Source: Escherichia phage vB_EcoM_G50
Direction: 5' to 3' (one strand)
Length of the DNA: 64,000 nucleotides
Sequence record: NC_054917.1
A program made the translations under genes and the position numbers. Shown piece after piece: positions 12,369-62,431 of this stretch. Positions within the stretch are counted from its first letter, which is position 1, and each line of letters opens with the position of its first letter. The notes beneath the pieces were generated by a model. That model saw nothing but the letters and a program-made list of their open reading frames with translations, searched no databases and was not told where the DNA came from.

Positions 12369-12971
12369 TTATAGATTAAATCCTTCAAAATCAAGAGTAT
12401 AGATAGTGTATGTTGAATACTTTTTGTACTCATATCTATCTGCAATTCTAAATACACTTCCAGCTGGTATCATTACTTCTTGTTCATCTGAAACTAATTC
12501 CATATTACGATAGCGATGACTATCCGGAAACTTAAAGTTTGGATTGTATTCTTTACACCGTAGAGCTTTTATAGCATACTCCTGGAAATTGAATACCATA
12601 GGAGCTTTGAATTCAAAAATAACTTGTGTGTTATACTCTAAACCAGAAGCAAAATGCAGAGCTATATTTTTATCATATGAAGCTGATACGACTTTATCAA
12701 ATGTAATAATATCAATTCCTTGATTTAATACTTGTTTAGTCTCAGCTGGAACACCTCTCCAAAGAGGTTTATCGTTTGGAACCAAACGAGATTTGATTAT
12801 TTCATTTAACCAAGTATGGTCATCTGGTTTGTTGGTAATACAATGAATTAAAAGTTCAATTTCAGATAAATTAAACCCTTCAGAAAGTAATTCTTCACGA
12901 ATAGAAGCACGCACCGATGCATCCATTGATTTTATTTTAAAATCTTTTAGTTGCATTATTGAGTATTTCAT
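12369..12971 (-). CDS. modA: ADP-ribosyltransferase ModA
   Basis: 200 aa; paralog of adjacent modB; matches T4 arrangement. Confidence 0.75.
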   Translation of the reverse strand: MKYSIMQLKDFKIKSMDASVRASIREELLSEGFNLSEIELLIHCITNKPDDHTWLNEIIKSRLVPNDKPLWRGVPAETKQVLNQGIDIITFDKVVSASYDKNIALHFASGLEYNTQVIFEFKAPMVFNFQEYAIKALRCKEYNPNFKFPDSHRYRNMELVSDEQEVMIPAGSVFRIADRYEYKKYSTYTIYTLDFEGFNL

Positions 12972-13591
12972 TCAACTACCTCAATATCATAAACTTTAAA
13001 TGTTCCAAATGAATCGTGTAATTTTTCTTTTGAAATAGAAGTTATTCTATACTTTCCAATTGGAATCATCCATTCTTGTTCATGTACAATCATCATTAAG
13101 TTATCAGTACGCTCTGAATCTAATCCATCAGTGTCTTCATACGTGTACTTAAACTCAGTATTAGGAGAAGAAAGTATAATATCGCTGATATGGTCAGAGT
13201 AATTAAAAGCTTTATCAGTTTTTAAGCGAAGTATTATTTTAGTAAAATATTCAGCATAAGAAAAAGAACATGCTGTGAGTAAACTAGTAGTAAATGAATC
13301 TACCCTGTTCGTTGAAAACACTTCTCCAACTTGTAAATCTTTAATAAGTTCTTCTGTTGATTTTGATATACCACGATATAACTGATAAGGCGATTTAGTT
13401 AAATGCTTTTTAATGATTTTATTCAACTGCTGATGAAGAGCTTCATTCTTTTTAGCTTCCATACATTGCCAAAGAACAGACTGCTCAAAGTCAGTAAATT
13501 TTTCACAGACCTTTTTATACATATCATATTGAAAATCAACGCTTTCAGCTTTTATAGATAACTGTTCAACATCTGCAAGATTAATAATCAT
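12968..13591 (-). CDS. modB: ADP-ribosyltransferase ModB
   Basis: 207 aa; ATGA overlap with modA. Confidence 0.75.
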   Translation of the reverse strand: MIINLADVEQLSIKAESVDFQYDMYKKVCEKFTDFEQSVLWQCMEAKKNEALHQQLNKIIKKHLTKSPYQLYRGISKSTEELIKDLQVGEVFSTNRVDSFTTSLLTACSFSYAEYFTKIILRLKTDKAFNYSDHISDIILSSPNTEFKYTYEDTDGLDSERTDNLMMIVHEQEWMIPIGKYRITSISKEKLHDSFGTFKVYDIEVVE

Positions 13592-18752: not shown

Positions 18753-19379
18753 TTAACCTCTATTCATAAAAGAATTAAAAATTTGGTCATCAATAGAAAC
18801 ATTTACTTTAGACTGTTTTTCGGATGGTAATTCATATCCACATATTACAATTTTGTGATCAATATCAAAATACACAGAAGCAATATGATTAATGCTGTTT
18901 TCAGTAAAGTCTAAATCAACATCAATATCTTTTTGACCAAAGCCCAAAGGATAAATAATGCGAGTAATTCGATTATCTTTAACAAAGATTCCACCGACAT
19001 ACTCTGTACTGCGTTTAAAGTCTACACGCCGACGAAATGAAAAATATTCAGGCTCTTTATGAGCTCGGCTCATAGGGCACAACGAATAACTAGAATAAGA
19101 GATGTCAAATCCTACGCCTTCAATATGAACTAAATTGTCATGATTAAACCAATTATAATCATATGCCAAGTCCATTAGATTGTCATATGTGAAAGGCACC
19201 GGATTAACATCATTGGTCACAAGCATATAATTAGCAACTGCTATAATTTCATTATTTTTAACGAATACAAACCGTGATTGGTGCGAATGGCCTGGACCTG
19301 CGTTTTCACGATTAATGATATAACACTGGGCACCTTTATATTTGTACGTGTCTTTACACTTGTGCATTTGATAAAGCAT
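18753..19379 (-). CDS. hypothetical protein (61.2 position)
   Basis: 208-aa ORF. Confidence 0.5.
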   Translation of the reverse strand: MLYQMHKCKDTYKYKGAQCYIINRENAGPGHSHQSRFVFVKNNEIIAVANYMLVTNDVNPVPFTYDNLMDLAYDYNWFNHDNLVHIEGVGFDISYSSYSLCPMSRAHKEPEYFSFRRRVDFKRSTEYVGGIFVKDNRITRIIYPLGFGQKDIDVDLDFTENSINHIASVYFDIDHKIVICGYELPSEKQSKVNVSIDDQIFNSFMNRG

Positions 19380-57341: not shown

Positions 57342-57554
57342 TCATTTTTGTCCTGTATTTACTTTATGCCGATGCACGGCCTTAACTTTATCAAGGTATT
57401 TTTCAAAATTTCGCAATCTAGTATAGTCTGCCGGAGATTGGTTGAGTGATACTTCTCGACGCAAAGCTGAAATGATATTTCCAACTTCCCTACGAATTTC
57501 ATCTAATTGAAGAACAGTAAGATTGCGAAGTTGCTTTTCAGTTAATTGTAGCAT
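57342..57554 (-). CDS. hypothetical small protein (rI.1 position)
   Basis: 70-aa ORF. Confidence 0.45.
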
Positions 57555-57596
57555 ATATACCCCTTTAGTTAGATAAACCTATTTATAACTTTTGCA

Positions 57597-58178
57597 CTAA
57601 CCGAGCTTTTTGGTTAATTCATTCCAATGTTTTCTACACAAAGAAACATAAATTTCATCACCAATACAGATTTGATTACCTTCTTTAACTGGTGTTCCAT
57701 CTTCCATTAATCGAGCTGTCATAATCGCTTTTTTACCGCAATGACAAACTGCTTTTAGTTCAATAAGTTTATCTGCAATCGCTAAAAGTTCTTTAGAACC
57801 TTCAAACAATTTTCCAGCGAAATCAGTCCTTAATCCATAAGCCATAACAGGAACATTATATGTATCAACAATTCGGCTCAATTGATGCACTTGTTCAGTT
57901 TTTAAAAACTGAGCTTCATCTACAAATACGCAATGAATATCTTTTTGTGCTTCAGCCCATTTATAGAACTCAAAAATATCCATATCATCCGTAATAATAT
58001 TCGCTTCCTGCTTAATTCCAATGCGAGAAACGACTTCACAGACAGAATCACGAGTATCAATAGCAGGCTTAAGAACTAATACACCCATTCCGCGTTCTTT
58101 ATAATTATGCGCAGCAGTCAAAAGAGAAGCAGATTTTCCAGCATTCATTGCTGCATAAGTAAAAATTAAACTCGCCAT
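57597..58178 (-). CDS. tk: thymidine kinase
   Basis: 193 aa, P-loop GKS and C-terminal zinc-binding CHCG motif; matches T4 Tk. Confidence 0.9.
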   Translation of the reverse strand: MASLIFTYAAMNAGKSASLLTAAHNYKERGMGVLVLKPAIDTRDSVCEVVSRIGIKQEANIITDDMDIFEFYKWAEAQKDIHCVFVDEAQFLKTEQVHQLSRIVDTYNVPVMAYGLRTDFAGKLFEGSKELLAIADKLIELKAVCHCGKKAIMTARLMEDGTPVKEGNQICIGDEIYVSLCRKHWNELTKKLG

Positions 58179-58187
58179 ATCACCTTC

Positions 58188-58394
58188 TTAAAGCGTATTC
58201 ACATAAGCTATTAATTCGTTTTCTTTCTTATCAAACCGGTCAGCAAATTCTTCCTGTTGTTCGGGAGATAGCGGGCCGTATTCATCATAAAAGGTGTTTG
58301 CTTCTATATGCTCATCTAGAAGTTCATGGATAAGCTCAAATAATTTATCTTTTTGTTCTTTACTCAGACTCATAGCCATGTAACCTTTAAGCAA
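58188..58394 (-). CDS. hypothetical small protein
   Basis: 68-aa ORF. Confidence 0.4.
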   Translation of the reverse strand: MLKGYMAMSLSKEQKDKLFELIHELLDEHIEANTFYDEYGPLSPEQQEEFADRFDKKENELIAYVNTL

Positions 58395-58582
58395 TATTCT
58401 TCTACATGTTGTTTACGACCTTTCCTATCAATAAAGGTATATTCAACGAATGTTCCAATATAGTCTTTATCTACATCATGAGGACTATTAATTGGGCATT
58501 TAGTACGGCAAATGCGTTCCCATTGACGAATAATTTCTGCTTTGTTTTTAGGATCAAACGGATGCGGGTAATGTACTTTCAT
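58370..58582 (-). CDS. hypothetical small protein
   Basis: 70-aa ORF. Confidence 0.4.
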   Translation of the reverse strand: MKVHYPHPFDPKNKAEIIRQWERICRTKCPINSPHDVDKDYIGTFVEYTFIDRKGRKQHVEEYCLKVTWL

Positions 58583-59033
58583 AATCCACCACTATTAAAT
58601 CAATATCAGGAGTAAACATGTCGATTAATTTAGAAACCTTATCCCAATCACCGCCAGCAATACCACAACCTATTCGTGGAATGTAAATTACTGGTTTAAA
58701 CAAAAGGGTCTCTGCCTGTAGATTTAATTCTATCATGCAGTTTACTAAAGCACCATAATCAAGATTAGGACCCGGTTCGTATTGCGTATACAGGTTATAG
58801 CATATACCAAATCCCGTAGGACTATGTTTAAAAACAATAGACATATCGCCTAATTTATCACGAGAACCGTACTCGGTAGTGGTTTTATCTATTTCTAAAA
58901 TTTTGGGATAGGCCCTCGCTAATTGACCCGCTACACCTGAACTCATAGTATGAAAGCAGTTGCACCCGTGCGCAATAATATTGCCTTGAAGAAATAGGGC
59001 GACAATATCGCCCTTGATATATTTTACAATCAT
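58554..59033 (-). CDS. TARG1/DarG-type macrodomain protein (putative ADP-ribose hydrolase)
   Basis: 159 aa; KGDIVALF...IIAHGCNC...SSGVAGQLA and PRIGCGIAGGDWDKV parallel the TARG1 motifs GDLFAC...LAHCIS...MGAGIA and PRIGCGLDRLQWENV. Confidence 0.6.
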   Translation of the reverse strand: MIVKYIKGDIVALFLQGNIIAHGCNCFHTMSSGVAGQLARAYPKILEIDKTTTEYGSRDKLGDMSIVFKHSPTGFGICYNLYTQYEPGPNLDYGALVNCMIELNLQAETLLFKPVIYIPRIGCGIAGGDWDKVSKLIDMFTPDIDLIVVDYESTLPASV

Positions 59034-59371
59034 CTAGTACTCAATCCTCGATTATAAGAATCTACCAAACGGTCAACCATTGAATGACAAGCGGCTTTAT
59101 CTTTCTCCTCCGCAACTGAACATTCTAAGGTATTCCACTTTTTAGCATATCGTTTTAATAAAGTATCATTTTTGTATCTGCTTGATTTATCTCTTTCTCC
59201 GTCTTTATATGCATATATTAATTTCTGCGCAAATTCAGCTTGGCATGCTTTATTTTTCCCGCAATAATCCGCGGCAGTACGGTTTACATACTCTCTAATT
59301 TCAGTATATGATGTATTTGCTAACGCAGAAAATGAAATTAATCCTATACATAAAACCAAAATTTTAGTCAT
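59030..59371 (-). CDS. secreted protein with signal peptide and four Cys
   Basis: 113 aa; MTKILVLCIGLISFSALA signal. Confidence 0.45.
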   Translation of the reverse strand: MTKILVLCIGLISFSALANTSYTEIREYVNRTAADYCGKNKACQAEFAQKLIYAYKDGERDKSSRYKNDTLLKRYAKKWNTLECSVAEEKDKAACHSMVDRLVDSYNRGLSTR

Positions 59372-59909
59372 TTACTATTTCCAAAAGTTTATTATTTTTA
59401 AGGTAGTTAGCCTTTTCTAGGACTTCAGAAGCATATTTAGAACCTGCTTTAACATTCCATCCCGAATTATAAGAGGATATTGCCTTTCTTATATCACCCT
59501 TATGTATATTTAACCAATAAGAAAGTTCAATGTACGCCCAGGAAGCTGAATTGGACCGTTTATTCAACATTCTTTTTATTTCGGCATCGGTCATATTATA
59601 ACCAAGTTCCTTAATTCTTGCTCGCATAGTCGGCAAATAATTTTGGAACATTCCGTAGGCATGATGCTTTGGTTTAGATTTTAAATTAACTCCGGCAGAG
59701 CTTTCTTGCCATAAAATAGCAGCCATTATATGACCCAATCCGCTCTTGTGGATATTTTTGTGTGTTTTATATTTTCCATCCTTAGAAAATTGTTCCCCGA
59801 ATTGATACGCGTAACGCATGTTATCGAGTTGGACATTACTGAAAGTATGCTCGGAGCTATGTGCCATCATTGAAATTGCCAATAGACCAGCGAGTAGTGC
59901 TTTTCTCAT
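59364..59909 (-). CDS. secreted lytic transglycosylase (SLT domain)
   Basis: 181 aa; signal peptide; ES (ILWQESS), GMFQ and YNSG motifs. Confidence 0.6.
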   Translation of the reverse strand: MRKALLAGLLAISMMAHSSEHTFSNVQLDNMRYAYQFGEQFSKDGKYKTHKNIHKSGLGHIMAAILWQESSAGVNLKSKPKHHAYGMFQNYLPTMRARIKELGYNMTDAEIKRMLNKRSNSASWAYIELSYWLNIHKGDIRKAISSYNSGWNVKAGSKYASEVLEKANYLKNNKLLEIVND

Positions 59910-59916
59910 GCTTACC

Positions 59917-60378
59917 TCATTGAGTTTTAATTACTGCTTTAGAAGCCTTTCCTGGTAAACGACGACTGTTGATAATTGCCATCCTACATTGAAGCGACGG
60001 GTCTTTGAACTTCGCATTAGGTTTACAAACTGTAAATCCAAGCCAAAGATTTCCATCTGTGATTTCTAAACGTCCAGGGCGATATTCAACCCCATCAATA
60101 AAATCCTCGTCAATGTCAGGACGCGGAGGCATACTCAGGAATTCATTAACTTCTAAAACATGGTCTTTTATTTTGTGGAATAATTCAAAAACATATGTCT
60201 CATCAATCTCCCGTTGAATTGCACGATCAAGAAGATGCTGAGAATATTTTAGATGAAACGATGAGACCCCTGCTGCTTTTGATGCCTCACGAATCTCATT
60301 GTTAATTTGACGAAACTCCGACTCAAAGTGACGACGGAGCTTATTTCGACGGATAAAAACTTCTGTGTTGATAGTCAT
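59917..60378 (-). CDS. regB: endoribonuclease RegB
   Basis: 153 aa; matches T4 RegB. Confidence 0.85.
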   Translation of the reverse strand: MTINTEVFIRRNKLRRHFESEFRQINNEIREASKAAGVSSFHLKYSQHLLDRAIQREIDETYVFELFHKIKDHVLEVNEFLSMPPRPDIDEDFIDGVEYRPGRLEITDGNLWLGFTVCKPNAKFKDPSLQCRMAIINSRRLPGKASKAVIKTQ

Positions 60379-60405
60379 GTTATTCTCCTCTTAACTGATA
60401 GAAAA

Positions 60406-60435
60406 ATTATACCACAGTCAAGAGGAAAAGTAAAC
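60406..60435 (-). promoter_or_regulatory. early promoter upstream of regB with -10 inside a 9/10 inverted repeat
   Basis: GTTTAC-18-TATAAT; CTCTTGACTG...CAGTTAAGAG. Confidence 0.55.
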
Positions 60436-60437
60436 AG

Positions 60438-60716
60438 TTATTCTTTAAATCTAATCAATTTATTCATAGACTTTGAAACTTCTGCACGAACCTCATGTAG
60501 GTTTTTGAGTTGCTCAAGACGCTGCTCATAGTAAGCAATTTCATCTTCTTCGAGACAGTCCTGTGAATCTTCTTTAAGATAGCGTGCATAATCCTGGAAA
60601 GCGTTACGGACTACTTCCTGGAAGTCATCAAGACTTTGAATTTTCTTAGGAGCAACAGATACACGACGAGGGGCAGTATAATACTCATAACCAAACCCTG
60701 CGCTTAATTGAGCCAT
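60438..60716 (-). CDS. hypothetical protein (vs.3 position)
   Basis: Start at internal ATG overlapping upstream stop. Confidence 0.4.
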
Positions 60717-60982
60717 TAATATTTTTCCTCTGGTTGGAACACAGCACGACAAGCCCACATACTGGCTTCTTTGAGTTTCGTTTTAGCAATAGTTAACTGA
60801 TCGAGGCTTTCAGCATAATTCTTCGCGAATTCACAGTCTTCACAATTATCTAGTGCTTCCCAAAATTCATCGTATAAAGCATCAAAGATAAGTCCTAAAC
60901 GAACTTCAGCATCTTTAATAGCATTCACTTTACCGATTTTCTCTTCAGTATGTGGCTTATAACCCTTAATATCTTCAATCAT
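60716..60982 (-). CDS. small acidic helical protein (vs.4 position; possible Acb2-like nucleotide sponge)
   Basis: 88-aa ORF, fourth gene downstream of regB; functional label from position only. Confidence 0.35.
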
Positions 60983-61196
60983 ATTTTACTTCCTCACCAG
61001 TACCTAAATCATATTCAACTAAACGAATAGGCTCATGAATTCCATATCCCTGAACAGAAATTTCTGTCGTAGGATAAATTCCATCAATATCACCCATATT
61101 CCATGCTTCATTAAATTGCTGTTCGCCTGAATTACTAAACCACTCGGCGAAAGCATTTAGCACATCTTTAGAACCTTCAATAATTATCTTTGCCAT
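60975..61196 (-). CDS. hypothetical small protein
   Basis: 73-aa ORF. Confidence 0.4.
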   Translation of the reverse strand: MAKIIIEGSKDVLNAFAEWFSNSGEQQFNEAWNMGDIDGIYPTTEISVQGYGIHEPIRLVEYDLGTGEEVKYD

Positions 61197-61558
61197 TACA
61201 GACTCTCGGTAAAGGTACGAGCGATAACGTCGCGCTGCTGTTCCGGAGTCAGAGAGTTAAAGCGAACTGCATAACCGGATACACGGATGGTCAGCTGCGG
61301 ATATTTTTCCGGATGCTTAACTGCATCTTCCAGAGTTTCACGACGCAGAACGTTAACGTTCAGGTGTTGACCACCTTCAATTTTAACTGTAGGCTGTTGC
61401 TCAATTTCAATTTCACGGGCATGCAAACCGTAGAAAATTTCTGGGTCTACAAAAGAGTCCTCTTTAAAGGTTTTAGAAACAATAATTCGTGCTTGAATAC
61501 CATCTTCAAAATAAATAGTACCTTTGTGTGTGCCTTCAAGAATTTGATATGCTTTCAT
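61196..61558 (-). CDS. autonomous glycyl-radical cofactor (GrcA/YfiD-like)
   Basis: 120 aa; C-terminal about 60 aa ([59 protein letters not shown]) identical to E. coli GrcA as recalled; GC-rich host-like codons in that half. Confidence 0.8.
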
Positions 61559-61565
61559 ATAAACC

Positions 61566-61892
61566 TCAATTAGAAAATAAATTTATCCAAGATTGTTCTT
61601 TAATTAAAAATGGCTCAGAATCATATGCCATTAAACTCTGTGTGATTAGTCCTTTAAAAGGCCCATCAATAAATTCCATAGTAAAATATGGAATTTTATT
61701 CATTAGCCGTGCATTAGGAGCCGTGCACAAAACTCTGCATCCTTTGAATACGCCTTTTTGTAATTTGTATTGCTTAGGATAAAATTCGCTCAAAATGTTA
61801 TTTTTTGCTAAAATTTCAAAATGATTCACCAATTTATTTTTAATAGTTTTTGGCGAAAAATAGAGATATTCGAAAAGCTGAGTGTCTGTCAT
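61566..61892 (-). CDS. hypothetical protein
   Basis: ORF from ATG overlapping upstream stop (ATGA). Confidence 0.4.
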
Positions 61893-62431
61893 CATTGCAT
61901 TCCGATTACGAAAAACTGTGGACGAGTAATACCACCAATGCAACATTTAATATTACAGCAGCAGTGTACAGTGTCAATATGGACACTATAAATCTTATCC
62001 ATATCAGGAGATTTGACAGGCTCATCAATTATATATAAAATTCGCGAAAGCTTTAAACCTCTGAACTTGCTTCCTTTATTACCGATAAAACTGCGCACAG
62101 AATCAGTAAATAAACGAAAACGTATATCATCATTAGAATAACGCGAAAATTCCTTTTTAATGTTATTTGCAGAAATTTTAGCGTAAGCTGAAGTATTAGA
62201 AAGAACAATAACTGTTCCGCCATCATACAACCAATTAGCAGCAAAGTTAGTCACAGCAATTGATTTACCGGATTGACGTCCACCGTCTAGTCGAAGTGTG
62301 CAATACTGTTTAAGTAATTCTTCAAATGGCGGGATATATTCGTTTTTACAAATTTCTTCTACTCTAGCATCAGAATGGTGTGTAAAAGCATTCATCAGGG
62401 ATAGATAAGGACCAGTTAAAAATGTTCTCAT
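61892..62431 (-). CDS. small P-loop NTPase
   Basis: 179 aa; Walker A GGRQSGKS, Walker B ILYIIDE; C-terminal Cys cluster. Confidence 0.5.
   Translation of the reverse strand: MRTFLTGPYLSLMNAFTHHSDARVEEICKNEYIPPFEELLKQYCTLRLDGGRQSGKSIAVTNFAANWLYDGGTVIVLSNTSAYAKISANNIKKEFSRYSNDDIRFRLFTDSVRSFIGNKGSKFRGLKLSRILYIIDEPVKSPDMDKIYSVHIDTVHCCCNIKCCIGGITRPQFFVIGMQ

Follow-up and report, generated by a model that had tools for sequence, protein, structure and literature searches.

The DNA analysed here is a stretch of 64,000 nucleotides, hereafter called the window, from Escherichia phage vB_EcoM_G50 (NC_054917.1). Many Tequatrovirus genomes match the region at about 98% identity, and the source phage is itself a Tequatrovirus. 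On the minus strand at 58554-59033, the window carries a 159-amino-acid ORF, exactly where the initial annotation had placed it. The ORF begins with ATG, and its start overlaps the stop codon of the upstream gene vs in the sequence ATGA. At its other end, the start of tk.3 lies inside the gene, and the overlap comprises the last 29 nt. The gene and its neighbours are as follows.

58554..59033, minus strand: macrodomain gene (159 aa), positional orthologue and diverged allele of T4 tk.4/adfM
59030..59371, minus strand: vs (valyl-tRNA synthetase modifier), upstream neighbour; PHROG 1256, E = 6.5e-40; annotated in HY01 and RB32
58370..58582, minus strand: tk.3 (70 aa), downstream neighbouring ORF; PHROG 2008, E = 1e-41; named tk.3 in RB32

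Annotated relatives carry tk, tk.1-tk.3, the macrodomain gene, vs, vs.1, and regB in that order, and in RB32 the macrodomain gene is annotated as tk.4. Of the neighbours, vs was used to mark the genomic context by which orthology with T4 tk.4 is judged. The window gene has tk.3 on one side and vs on the other, just as tk.4 does in RB32 and T4, and is thus a positional orthologue of the T4 gene. The description of the gene as next to tk is accurate for the neighbourhood but not for direct adjacency, as two small ORFs intervene and the gene directly borders on tk.3 and vs.

Variation also affects the small ORFs that separate tk from tk.3 (58188-58394 and 58221-58340). This region is diverged from RB32 and shorter by 373 bp than its counterpart in HY01 and other relatives, where two additional small ORFs are present. 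On the other side of vs, the vs.1 gene (59364-59909, minus strand) encodes 181 residues with an N-terminus resembling a signal peptide (MRKALLAGLLAISMMAHS), and the protein matches lytic tail proteins weakly in the PHROG comparison (E = 9e-5). These features suggest that Vs.1 is an exported protein resembling a cell-wall hydrolase, and the HY01 label of vs.1, “RegB domain-containing”, is probably wrong. A promoter and terminator scan of 57400-62000 found 16 promoters, as compared to 17.5 in the shuffled sequence; the counts of both elements were no higher than in shuffled sequence, and the scan is therefore uninformative on expression.

Macrodomain fold and active site

The initial annotation had identified the protein as a macrodomain from sequence motifs, and the profile and structure comparisons bear this identity out, with similarity well above the chance level. 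The Pfam Macro profile (PF01661) matches with 29.1 bits, above its gathering threshold of 22, over profile positions 2-117 of 118, and PHROG 335 is matched with E = 4.7e-70. The motifs named there are all present: GDI (8-10), AHGCNC (21-26), GVAG (33-36), and PRIGCGIAGG (118-127). The protein has the three-layer α/β/α fold, with a mixed β-sheet and an ADP-ribose cleft. It shares with TARG1/OARD1 (4J5S) the fold (TM up to 0.84), the GD-AH-GAG motifs of the N-terminal part, and the PRIGCG loop.

In a single-sequence search of the PDB chains, the protein matched BT1257 (2.5e-9), Poa1p (1e-8), and SCO6735 (6e-7); the same search gave 3.5e-4 for Mycobacterium tuberculosis DarG (5M3I) and matched TARG1 at the C-terminal loop. 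With a profile of 56 homologues, the values against the PDB were 4e-18 for BT1257, 5e-17 for TARG1, 6e-15 for SCO6735, 9e-15 for Poa1p, and 8e-12 for DarG. In fold and sequence, the protein is nearer to the members of the ALC1-like class than to MacroD, PARG, and the viral macrodomains. It is a stand-alone ALC1-like macrodomain, consisting of the domain only, of the class that comprises TARG1, DarG, Poa1p, SCO6735, and BT1257.

Among the 56 family members, H22, G23, N25, C26, G33, A35, D49, G62, N80, Y82, and Q84 are invariant, as are P119, G122, G124, and W130 in the C-terminal part. Most of these residues fall in four segments.

58956..58973, minus strand: A21-C26 (AHGCNC); H22, G23, N25, and C26 invariant in the family
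58926..58937, minus strand: G33-G36 (GVAG), first glycine-rich ADP-ribose/phosphate-binding loop; G33 invariant in alignments A1 and A2
58782..58796, minus strand: N80-Q84 (NLYTQ); N80, Y82, and Q84 invariant in the 56 homologues
58644..58679, minus strand: P119-W130 (PRIGCGIAGGDW), second glycine-rich diphosphate-binding loop; P119, G122, G124, and W130 invariant

A35 is invariant in alignment A1 and at least 90% conserved in the MAFFT alignment A2, which includes TARG1, two DarGs, BT1257, and PhiKZ gp104. N25 aligns with N23 of the PhiKZ protein, also named AdfM, both in alignment A2 and by hhalign, which pairs CN with VN; the alanine substitution of that N23 lowers the de-ADP-ribosylation activity (PMC13309987). 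H22 aligns with a conserved His of Poa1p and T29 with a Ser, and these Poa1p residues correspond to His23 and Ser30, expected in an ADP-ribose-1''-phosphate phosphatase of this type, only if a 3-residue offset in the chain numbering is assumed.

How does the catalytic center compare with those of TARG1 and DarG? The invariant Q84 occupies the position of the catalytic lysine (K84 in TARG1, K80 in Thermus aquaticus DarG). The profile-to-TARG1 alignment pairs t-q with T-K, and alignment A2 places NLYTQ over YLITK of TARG1, NFPTK of DarG, MFPTK of the PhiKZ protein, and NMIGQ of BT1257. An hhalign comparison of the family with PhiKZ gp104 instead put Q84 one residue off the lysine, in a low-confidence stretch, and was set aside in favour of the two alignments that agree. 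In addition, A126 occupies the position of the catalytic Asp125 of TARG1. With an invariant Gln84 in place of the lysine and Ala126 in place of Asp125, the active site is not of the DarG/TARG1 type.

The Lys84/Asp125 dyad of TARG1 proper (the “TK-G-G-D” signature; PMC8120803) is thus absent. For DarG proper, the NCBIfam profile NF048014 scored 22.8 bits against a cut-off of 250, and the catalytic “TK” lysine is missing, as seen where NLYTQ lies over NFPTK. Furthermore, the 159 residues match only positions 2-142 of the 338 in the DarG profile and contain no C-terminal DarT-binding domain, and the neighbours are vs and tk.3 rather than darT. By contrast, the DarGs of T. aquaticus (5M31) and M. 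tuberculosis (5M3I) have all three: the lysine in “FPTK”, the DarT-binding domain, and an adjacent darT. The protein would act like TARG1 and DarG but is therefore a member of neither group, and of the “TARG1/DarG-type” designation in the initial annotation the fold and motifs stand, while the catalytic residues do not.

The closer counterparts are the cellular proteins SCO6735 of Streptomyces coelicolor (5E3B) and BT1257 of Bacteroides (2AFC/2FG1), which are about 25-28% identical to the window protein. In direct phmmer alignments to 5e3b and 2afc, the second loop, PRIGCGIAGGDW, follows the PRIGCG(L/I)AGGxW pattern and is nearly identical to PRIGCGLAGGTW of SCO6735 and PRIGCGLAGGKW of BT1257, while the loop of TARG1 is PRIGCGLDRLQW. 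Q84 likewise agrees with the glutamine found at the catalytic lysine position in the SCO6735/BT1257-like subclass. The equivalence to Gln85 of SCO6735 rests on the published description (PMC9411070), since the PDB sequence search aligned the C-terminal loop only. The loop following Q84, YEPGPNLDY, is devoid of Lys and Arg and, in alignment A2, falls 6 residues short of the BT1257 loop; SCO6735 differs in that its loop is longer, basic, and mobile, with Lys89 and Lys94 serving DNA binding. Judged by these residues, the Tk.4 family is of the Gln type, SCO6735-like, and not a Lys-type DarG.

A diverged allele cassette

The sliding identity profile against the T4-type phage RB32 delimits a segment between 58995 and approximately 58536, and a short repeat lies next to it.

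58536..58995, unstranded: diverged allele cassette, about 460 nt
58996..59014, minus strand: 19-nt GC-rich inverted repeat AGGGCGATATTGTCGCCCT, codons 7-13, from the terminator-like scan

Within the cassette, the nucleotide identity to RB32 is 53-78%, while it is 97-100% in both flanks, across regB, vs.1, vs, most of tk.3, and tk. Nearly all of the macrodomain gene falls within the cassette, as do the first ~45 nt of tk.3. From the start codon of the macrodomain gene, the two alleles agree for 38 nt and begin to differ at 58995. Both alleles keep the inverted repeat, which lies directly at the left breakpoint; a role in recombination or regulation is possible, as is a coincidence of position.

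The window protein is 57% identical to RB32 Tk.4 over 155 aa, the full length (E = 1e-68), and RB32 Tk.4 is in turn 98.7% identical to T4 Tk.4. The T4 protein shares with the window protein the locus between tk.3 and vs, the stand-alone architecture (155 versus 159 aa), the first 14 residues, and H22, N25, G33, Q84, P119, G122, G124, and W130. It differs in overall sequence (57% identity) and in the second loop, which is GCGIAGGD in the window protein and GAGIGKGN in T4. The differences between the alleles are concentrated in residues 46-79 and 121-155, and all of the family-invariant residues are present in both. The two alleles are probably equivalent in function.

The window-type allele occurs at an identity of at least 95% in 269 records, and the T4-type allele at the same threshold in 218, with 80-90% identity in another 159. 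Both alleles are thus common, about equally, in the sequenced Tequatroviruses. The two alleles, about 57% identical, and a third class at 80-90% identity to the T4 type may circulate at similar frequency and be swapped under arms-race selection, and they might differ in the DarT2 variants, or other ADP-ribosylating defences, that they neutralise.

Proposed anti-DarT role and alternative explanations

The role of the T4 orthologue has been described in a HIDEN-SEQ preprint (bioRxiv, Nov 2025; 10.1101/2025.11.20.689424), in which a T4 transposon library was screened on a DarTG2-expressing host. There, tk.4 was the single significant T4 gene, its insertion counts were reduced only when DarTG2 was present, and a clean tk.4 knockout was sensitised to DarTG2 (10.1101/2025.11.20.689424). 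The authors renamed the gene adfM (anti-DarT factor Macrodomain), remarked on the structural similarity to M. tuberculosis DarG, and wrote of the enzymatic removal of ADP-ribose from DNA by AdfM that it “seems likely” (10.1101/2025.11.20.689424). Consistently, T4 without adfA and adfN still resists DarTG2, which had predicted a further factor (PMC11825919). The proposal in the initial annotation that the protein could reverse DarT-type DNA ADP-ribosylation is therefore supported by the need for T4 tk.4 on DarTG2 hosts (10.1101/2025.11.20.689424); with this published role, the idea is correct in substance but already known. The new elements are modest: the assignment to the Gln type, the sharp boundaries of the allele cassette, and an allele other than that of T4.

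We propose, with a probability of roughly 0.7, that the window gene is the Tequatrovirus tk.4/adfM and that its product removes DarT2-made ADP-ribose from phage DNA. Upon infection, the host DarT2 would ADP-ribosylate thymidines in single-stranded phage DNA and thereby block replication. The phage enzyme would hold the ADP-ribose by its glycine-rich loops (G33-x-A-G and G122-C-G-I-A-G-G) and Asn25, and the invariant Gln84, where DarG and TARG1 have a lysine, would position the distal ribose. The thymine-ribose bond could then be hydrolysed through a water-mediated mechanism of the kind put forward for SCO6735, which would free the ADP-ribose and restore the base.

Two characterised macrodomains inform this proposal. 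SCO6735 has Gln85 at the lysine position, and its Q85A and Q85E variants are inactive; the enzyme itself is efficient in hydrolysing the thymidine-ADP-ribose produced by DarT and relieves DarT toxicity, and a water-mediated mechanism has been proposed for it (PMC9411070). PhiKZ gp104, also a stand-alone phage macrodomain countering DarTG2 (Cell Rep 2026, PMC13309987), strips DarT2-made ADP-ribose from DNA in vitro (PMC13309987). The evidence for gp104 is thus biochemical, while that for the Tk.4 type is genetic and concerns the T4 allele only. The two proteins share the Asn (N23 = N25), but gp104 is a Lys-type DarG relative with “FPTK”, matching 5M3I with E = 9e-25, as compared to 3.5e-4 for the Gln-bearing window protein. 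Therefore, the two phage “AdfM” proteins represent separate recruitments from different subclasses. The name AdfM was given independently to these two non-orthologous macrodomains.

Several features weigh against a role on DNA. The window protein is acidic (pI 5.0) and has no basic residues in the YEPGPNLDY loop, while SCO6735 holds DNA with Lys89 and Lys34, and Poa1p is as close by sequence as any DNA-acting enzyme. In addition, family members in Vibrio phages lie within a gene cluster resembling NAD+ salvage, a hint of small-molecule substrates. As for sharing the activity of T4 AdfM, the window allele differs from the tested allele at 43% of the residues, including the second loop. We nevertheless infer that the 57%-identical window allele has the same activity and target as T4 AdfM.

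Alternatively, the main substrates could be soluble ADP-ribose derivatives (such as ADP-ribose-1''-phosphate or O-acetyl-ADP-ribose), as for a Poa1p-like “phosphatase” acting in RNA repair or NAD+ recycling; the DarT2 protection would then be a secondary activity or a property of the T4 allele alone. We consider this unlikely. T4 RNA repair (Pnk, Rnl) is not known to yield ADP-ribose-1''-phosphate. Yeast Poa1p (6LFQ) is an ADP-ribose-1''-phosphate phosphatase acting on a soluble by-product of tRNA splicing, a substrate not known from T-even infection, and the “phosphatase” label of the family comes from annotation transfer, not from an assay. Moreover, the sole known genetic phenotype of the locus is DarTG2 sensitivity (10.1101/2025.11.20.689424). 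The two alleles could also have different targets, with the window allele directed against another DarT2 variant or another nucleic-acid- or protein-ADP-ribosylating defence. The confinement of the divergence to the gene between flanks of 97-100% identity, the abundance of both alleles among sequenced phages, and a comparable variant-specific pattern in AdfA (PMC11825919) speak for such a division. However, both alleles keep every family-invariant active-site residue, and an enzyme that works on the modified product should be indifferent to the DarT that generated it, an argument drawn from PMC11825919. Moreover, CmdTAC still defends strongly against T-even phages carrying tk.4 (PMC11618068), and macrodomain reversal is not discussed in the CmdTAC report. 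Such a division of targets is quite improbable on balance.

In vitro, DarT is inhibited by SCO6735, DarG, and TARG1 even in their catalytically dead forms (PMC9411070), and the protection could in principle come mainly from stoichiometric DarT2 binding rather than hydrolysis. The invariant residues, however, all line the ADP-ribose pocket, and the C-terminal DarT-binding domain of DarG has no counterpart in the window protein, which makes this explanation very improbable. The least probable explanation is the other function suggested in the initial annotation, the editing of ADP-ribosylation by the phage’s own enzymes, here taken to include reversal of ADP-ribosylation or RNAylation by Alt, ModA, and ModB. 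ModA and ModB are indeed encoded in the same window (12369..13591), 45 kb from the macrodomain gene. But Alt and ModA target arginine (RNAP alpha R265, MazF R84), and Arg-linked ADP-ribose is cleaved by DraG/ARH-type hydrolases, while the substrates of MacroD/TARG1-like macrodomains are Asp/Glu esters, OAADPr, and nucleic-acid adducts (PMC8120803). As the ModA/ModB marks are Arg-linked, their editing by the window macrodomain is highly unlikely, and no phenotype has been reported in the absence of DarTG2 (10.1101/2025.11.20.689424). The removal of DarT2-made ADP-ribose from phage DNA thus remains our preferred reading.

The wider family and phage defence

In most GenBank records, members of the Tk.4 family bear the transferred annotation “phosphatase” or “RNase III inhibitor”. 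The former label, used in PHROGs and GenBank, derives from the likeness of the family to Poa1p and probably misleads for PHROG 335, a group of about 2,800 phage records.

In Vibrio phage Dax (MT459144, 2632-5638), the macrodomain gp176 belongs to PHROG 335 and is of the Gln type, with NVYGQY and LIGCGLAGGDW motifs. It is flanked by the PRPP-synthetase-like gp175 and the Nampt-like gp177, an arrangement that resembles the NARP1 NAD+-reconstitution cassette with an extra macrodomain. Given this NAD+-salvage-like context, some family members may process soluble ADP-ribose derivatives, and the relatives in NARP1-like cassettes might link de-ADP-ribosylation to NAD+ rebuilding. Our literature search found no paper joining NARP1 and macrodomains. 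Around a bacterial homologue (Pelagimonas P0095), no DarT neighbour was found; the gene is stand-alone in a housekeeping context, which lends no support to a recent origin from a DarTG operon.

By analogy with SCO6735, the Tk.4 family would be a first among phage counter-defences in using the Gln-type, water-mediated mechanism rather than the lysine of DarG. The combined idea, in which tk.4/adfM is an arms-race swap-in cassette, Tk.4 is the first Gln-type phage counter-defence, and the NARP1-like relatives tie the family to NAD+, is a tentative one that we regard as doubtful in its entirety.

Elsewhere in the window, at 18753-19379 on the minus strand, there is a 208-aa ORF of PHROG 3781, which in relatives lies beside spackle. 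On the T4 gene map, this position corresponds to that of 61.2, also named adfA (anti-DarT factor A), so that a second anti-DarT gene may be present in the window. T-even phages possess layered anti-DarT tools, with AdfA and AdfN acting against DarTG1 and Tk.4/AdfM against DarTG2, as the literature already describes. The findings are relevant to the sequence-based prediction of DarTG sensitivity in therapeutic T4-like phages.
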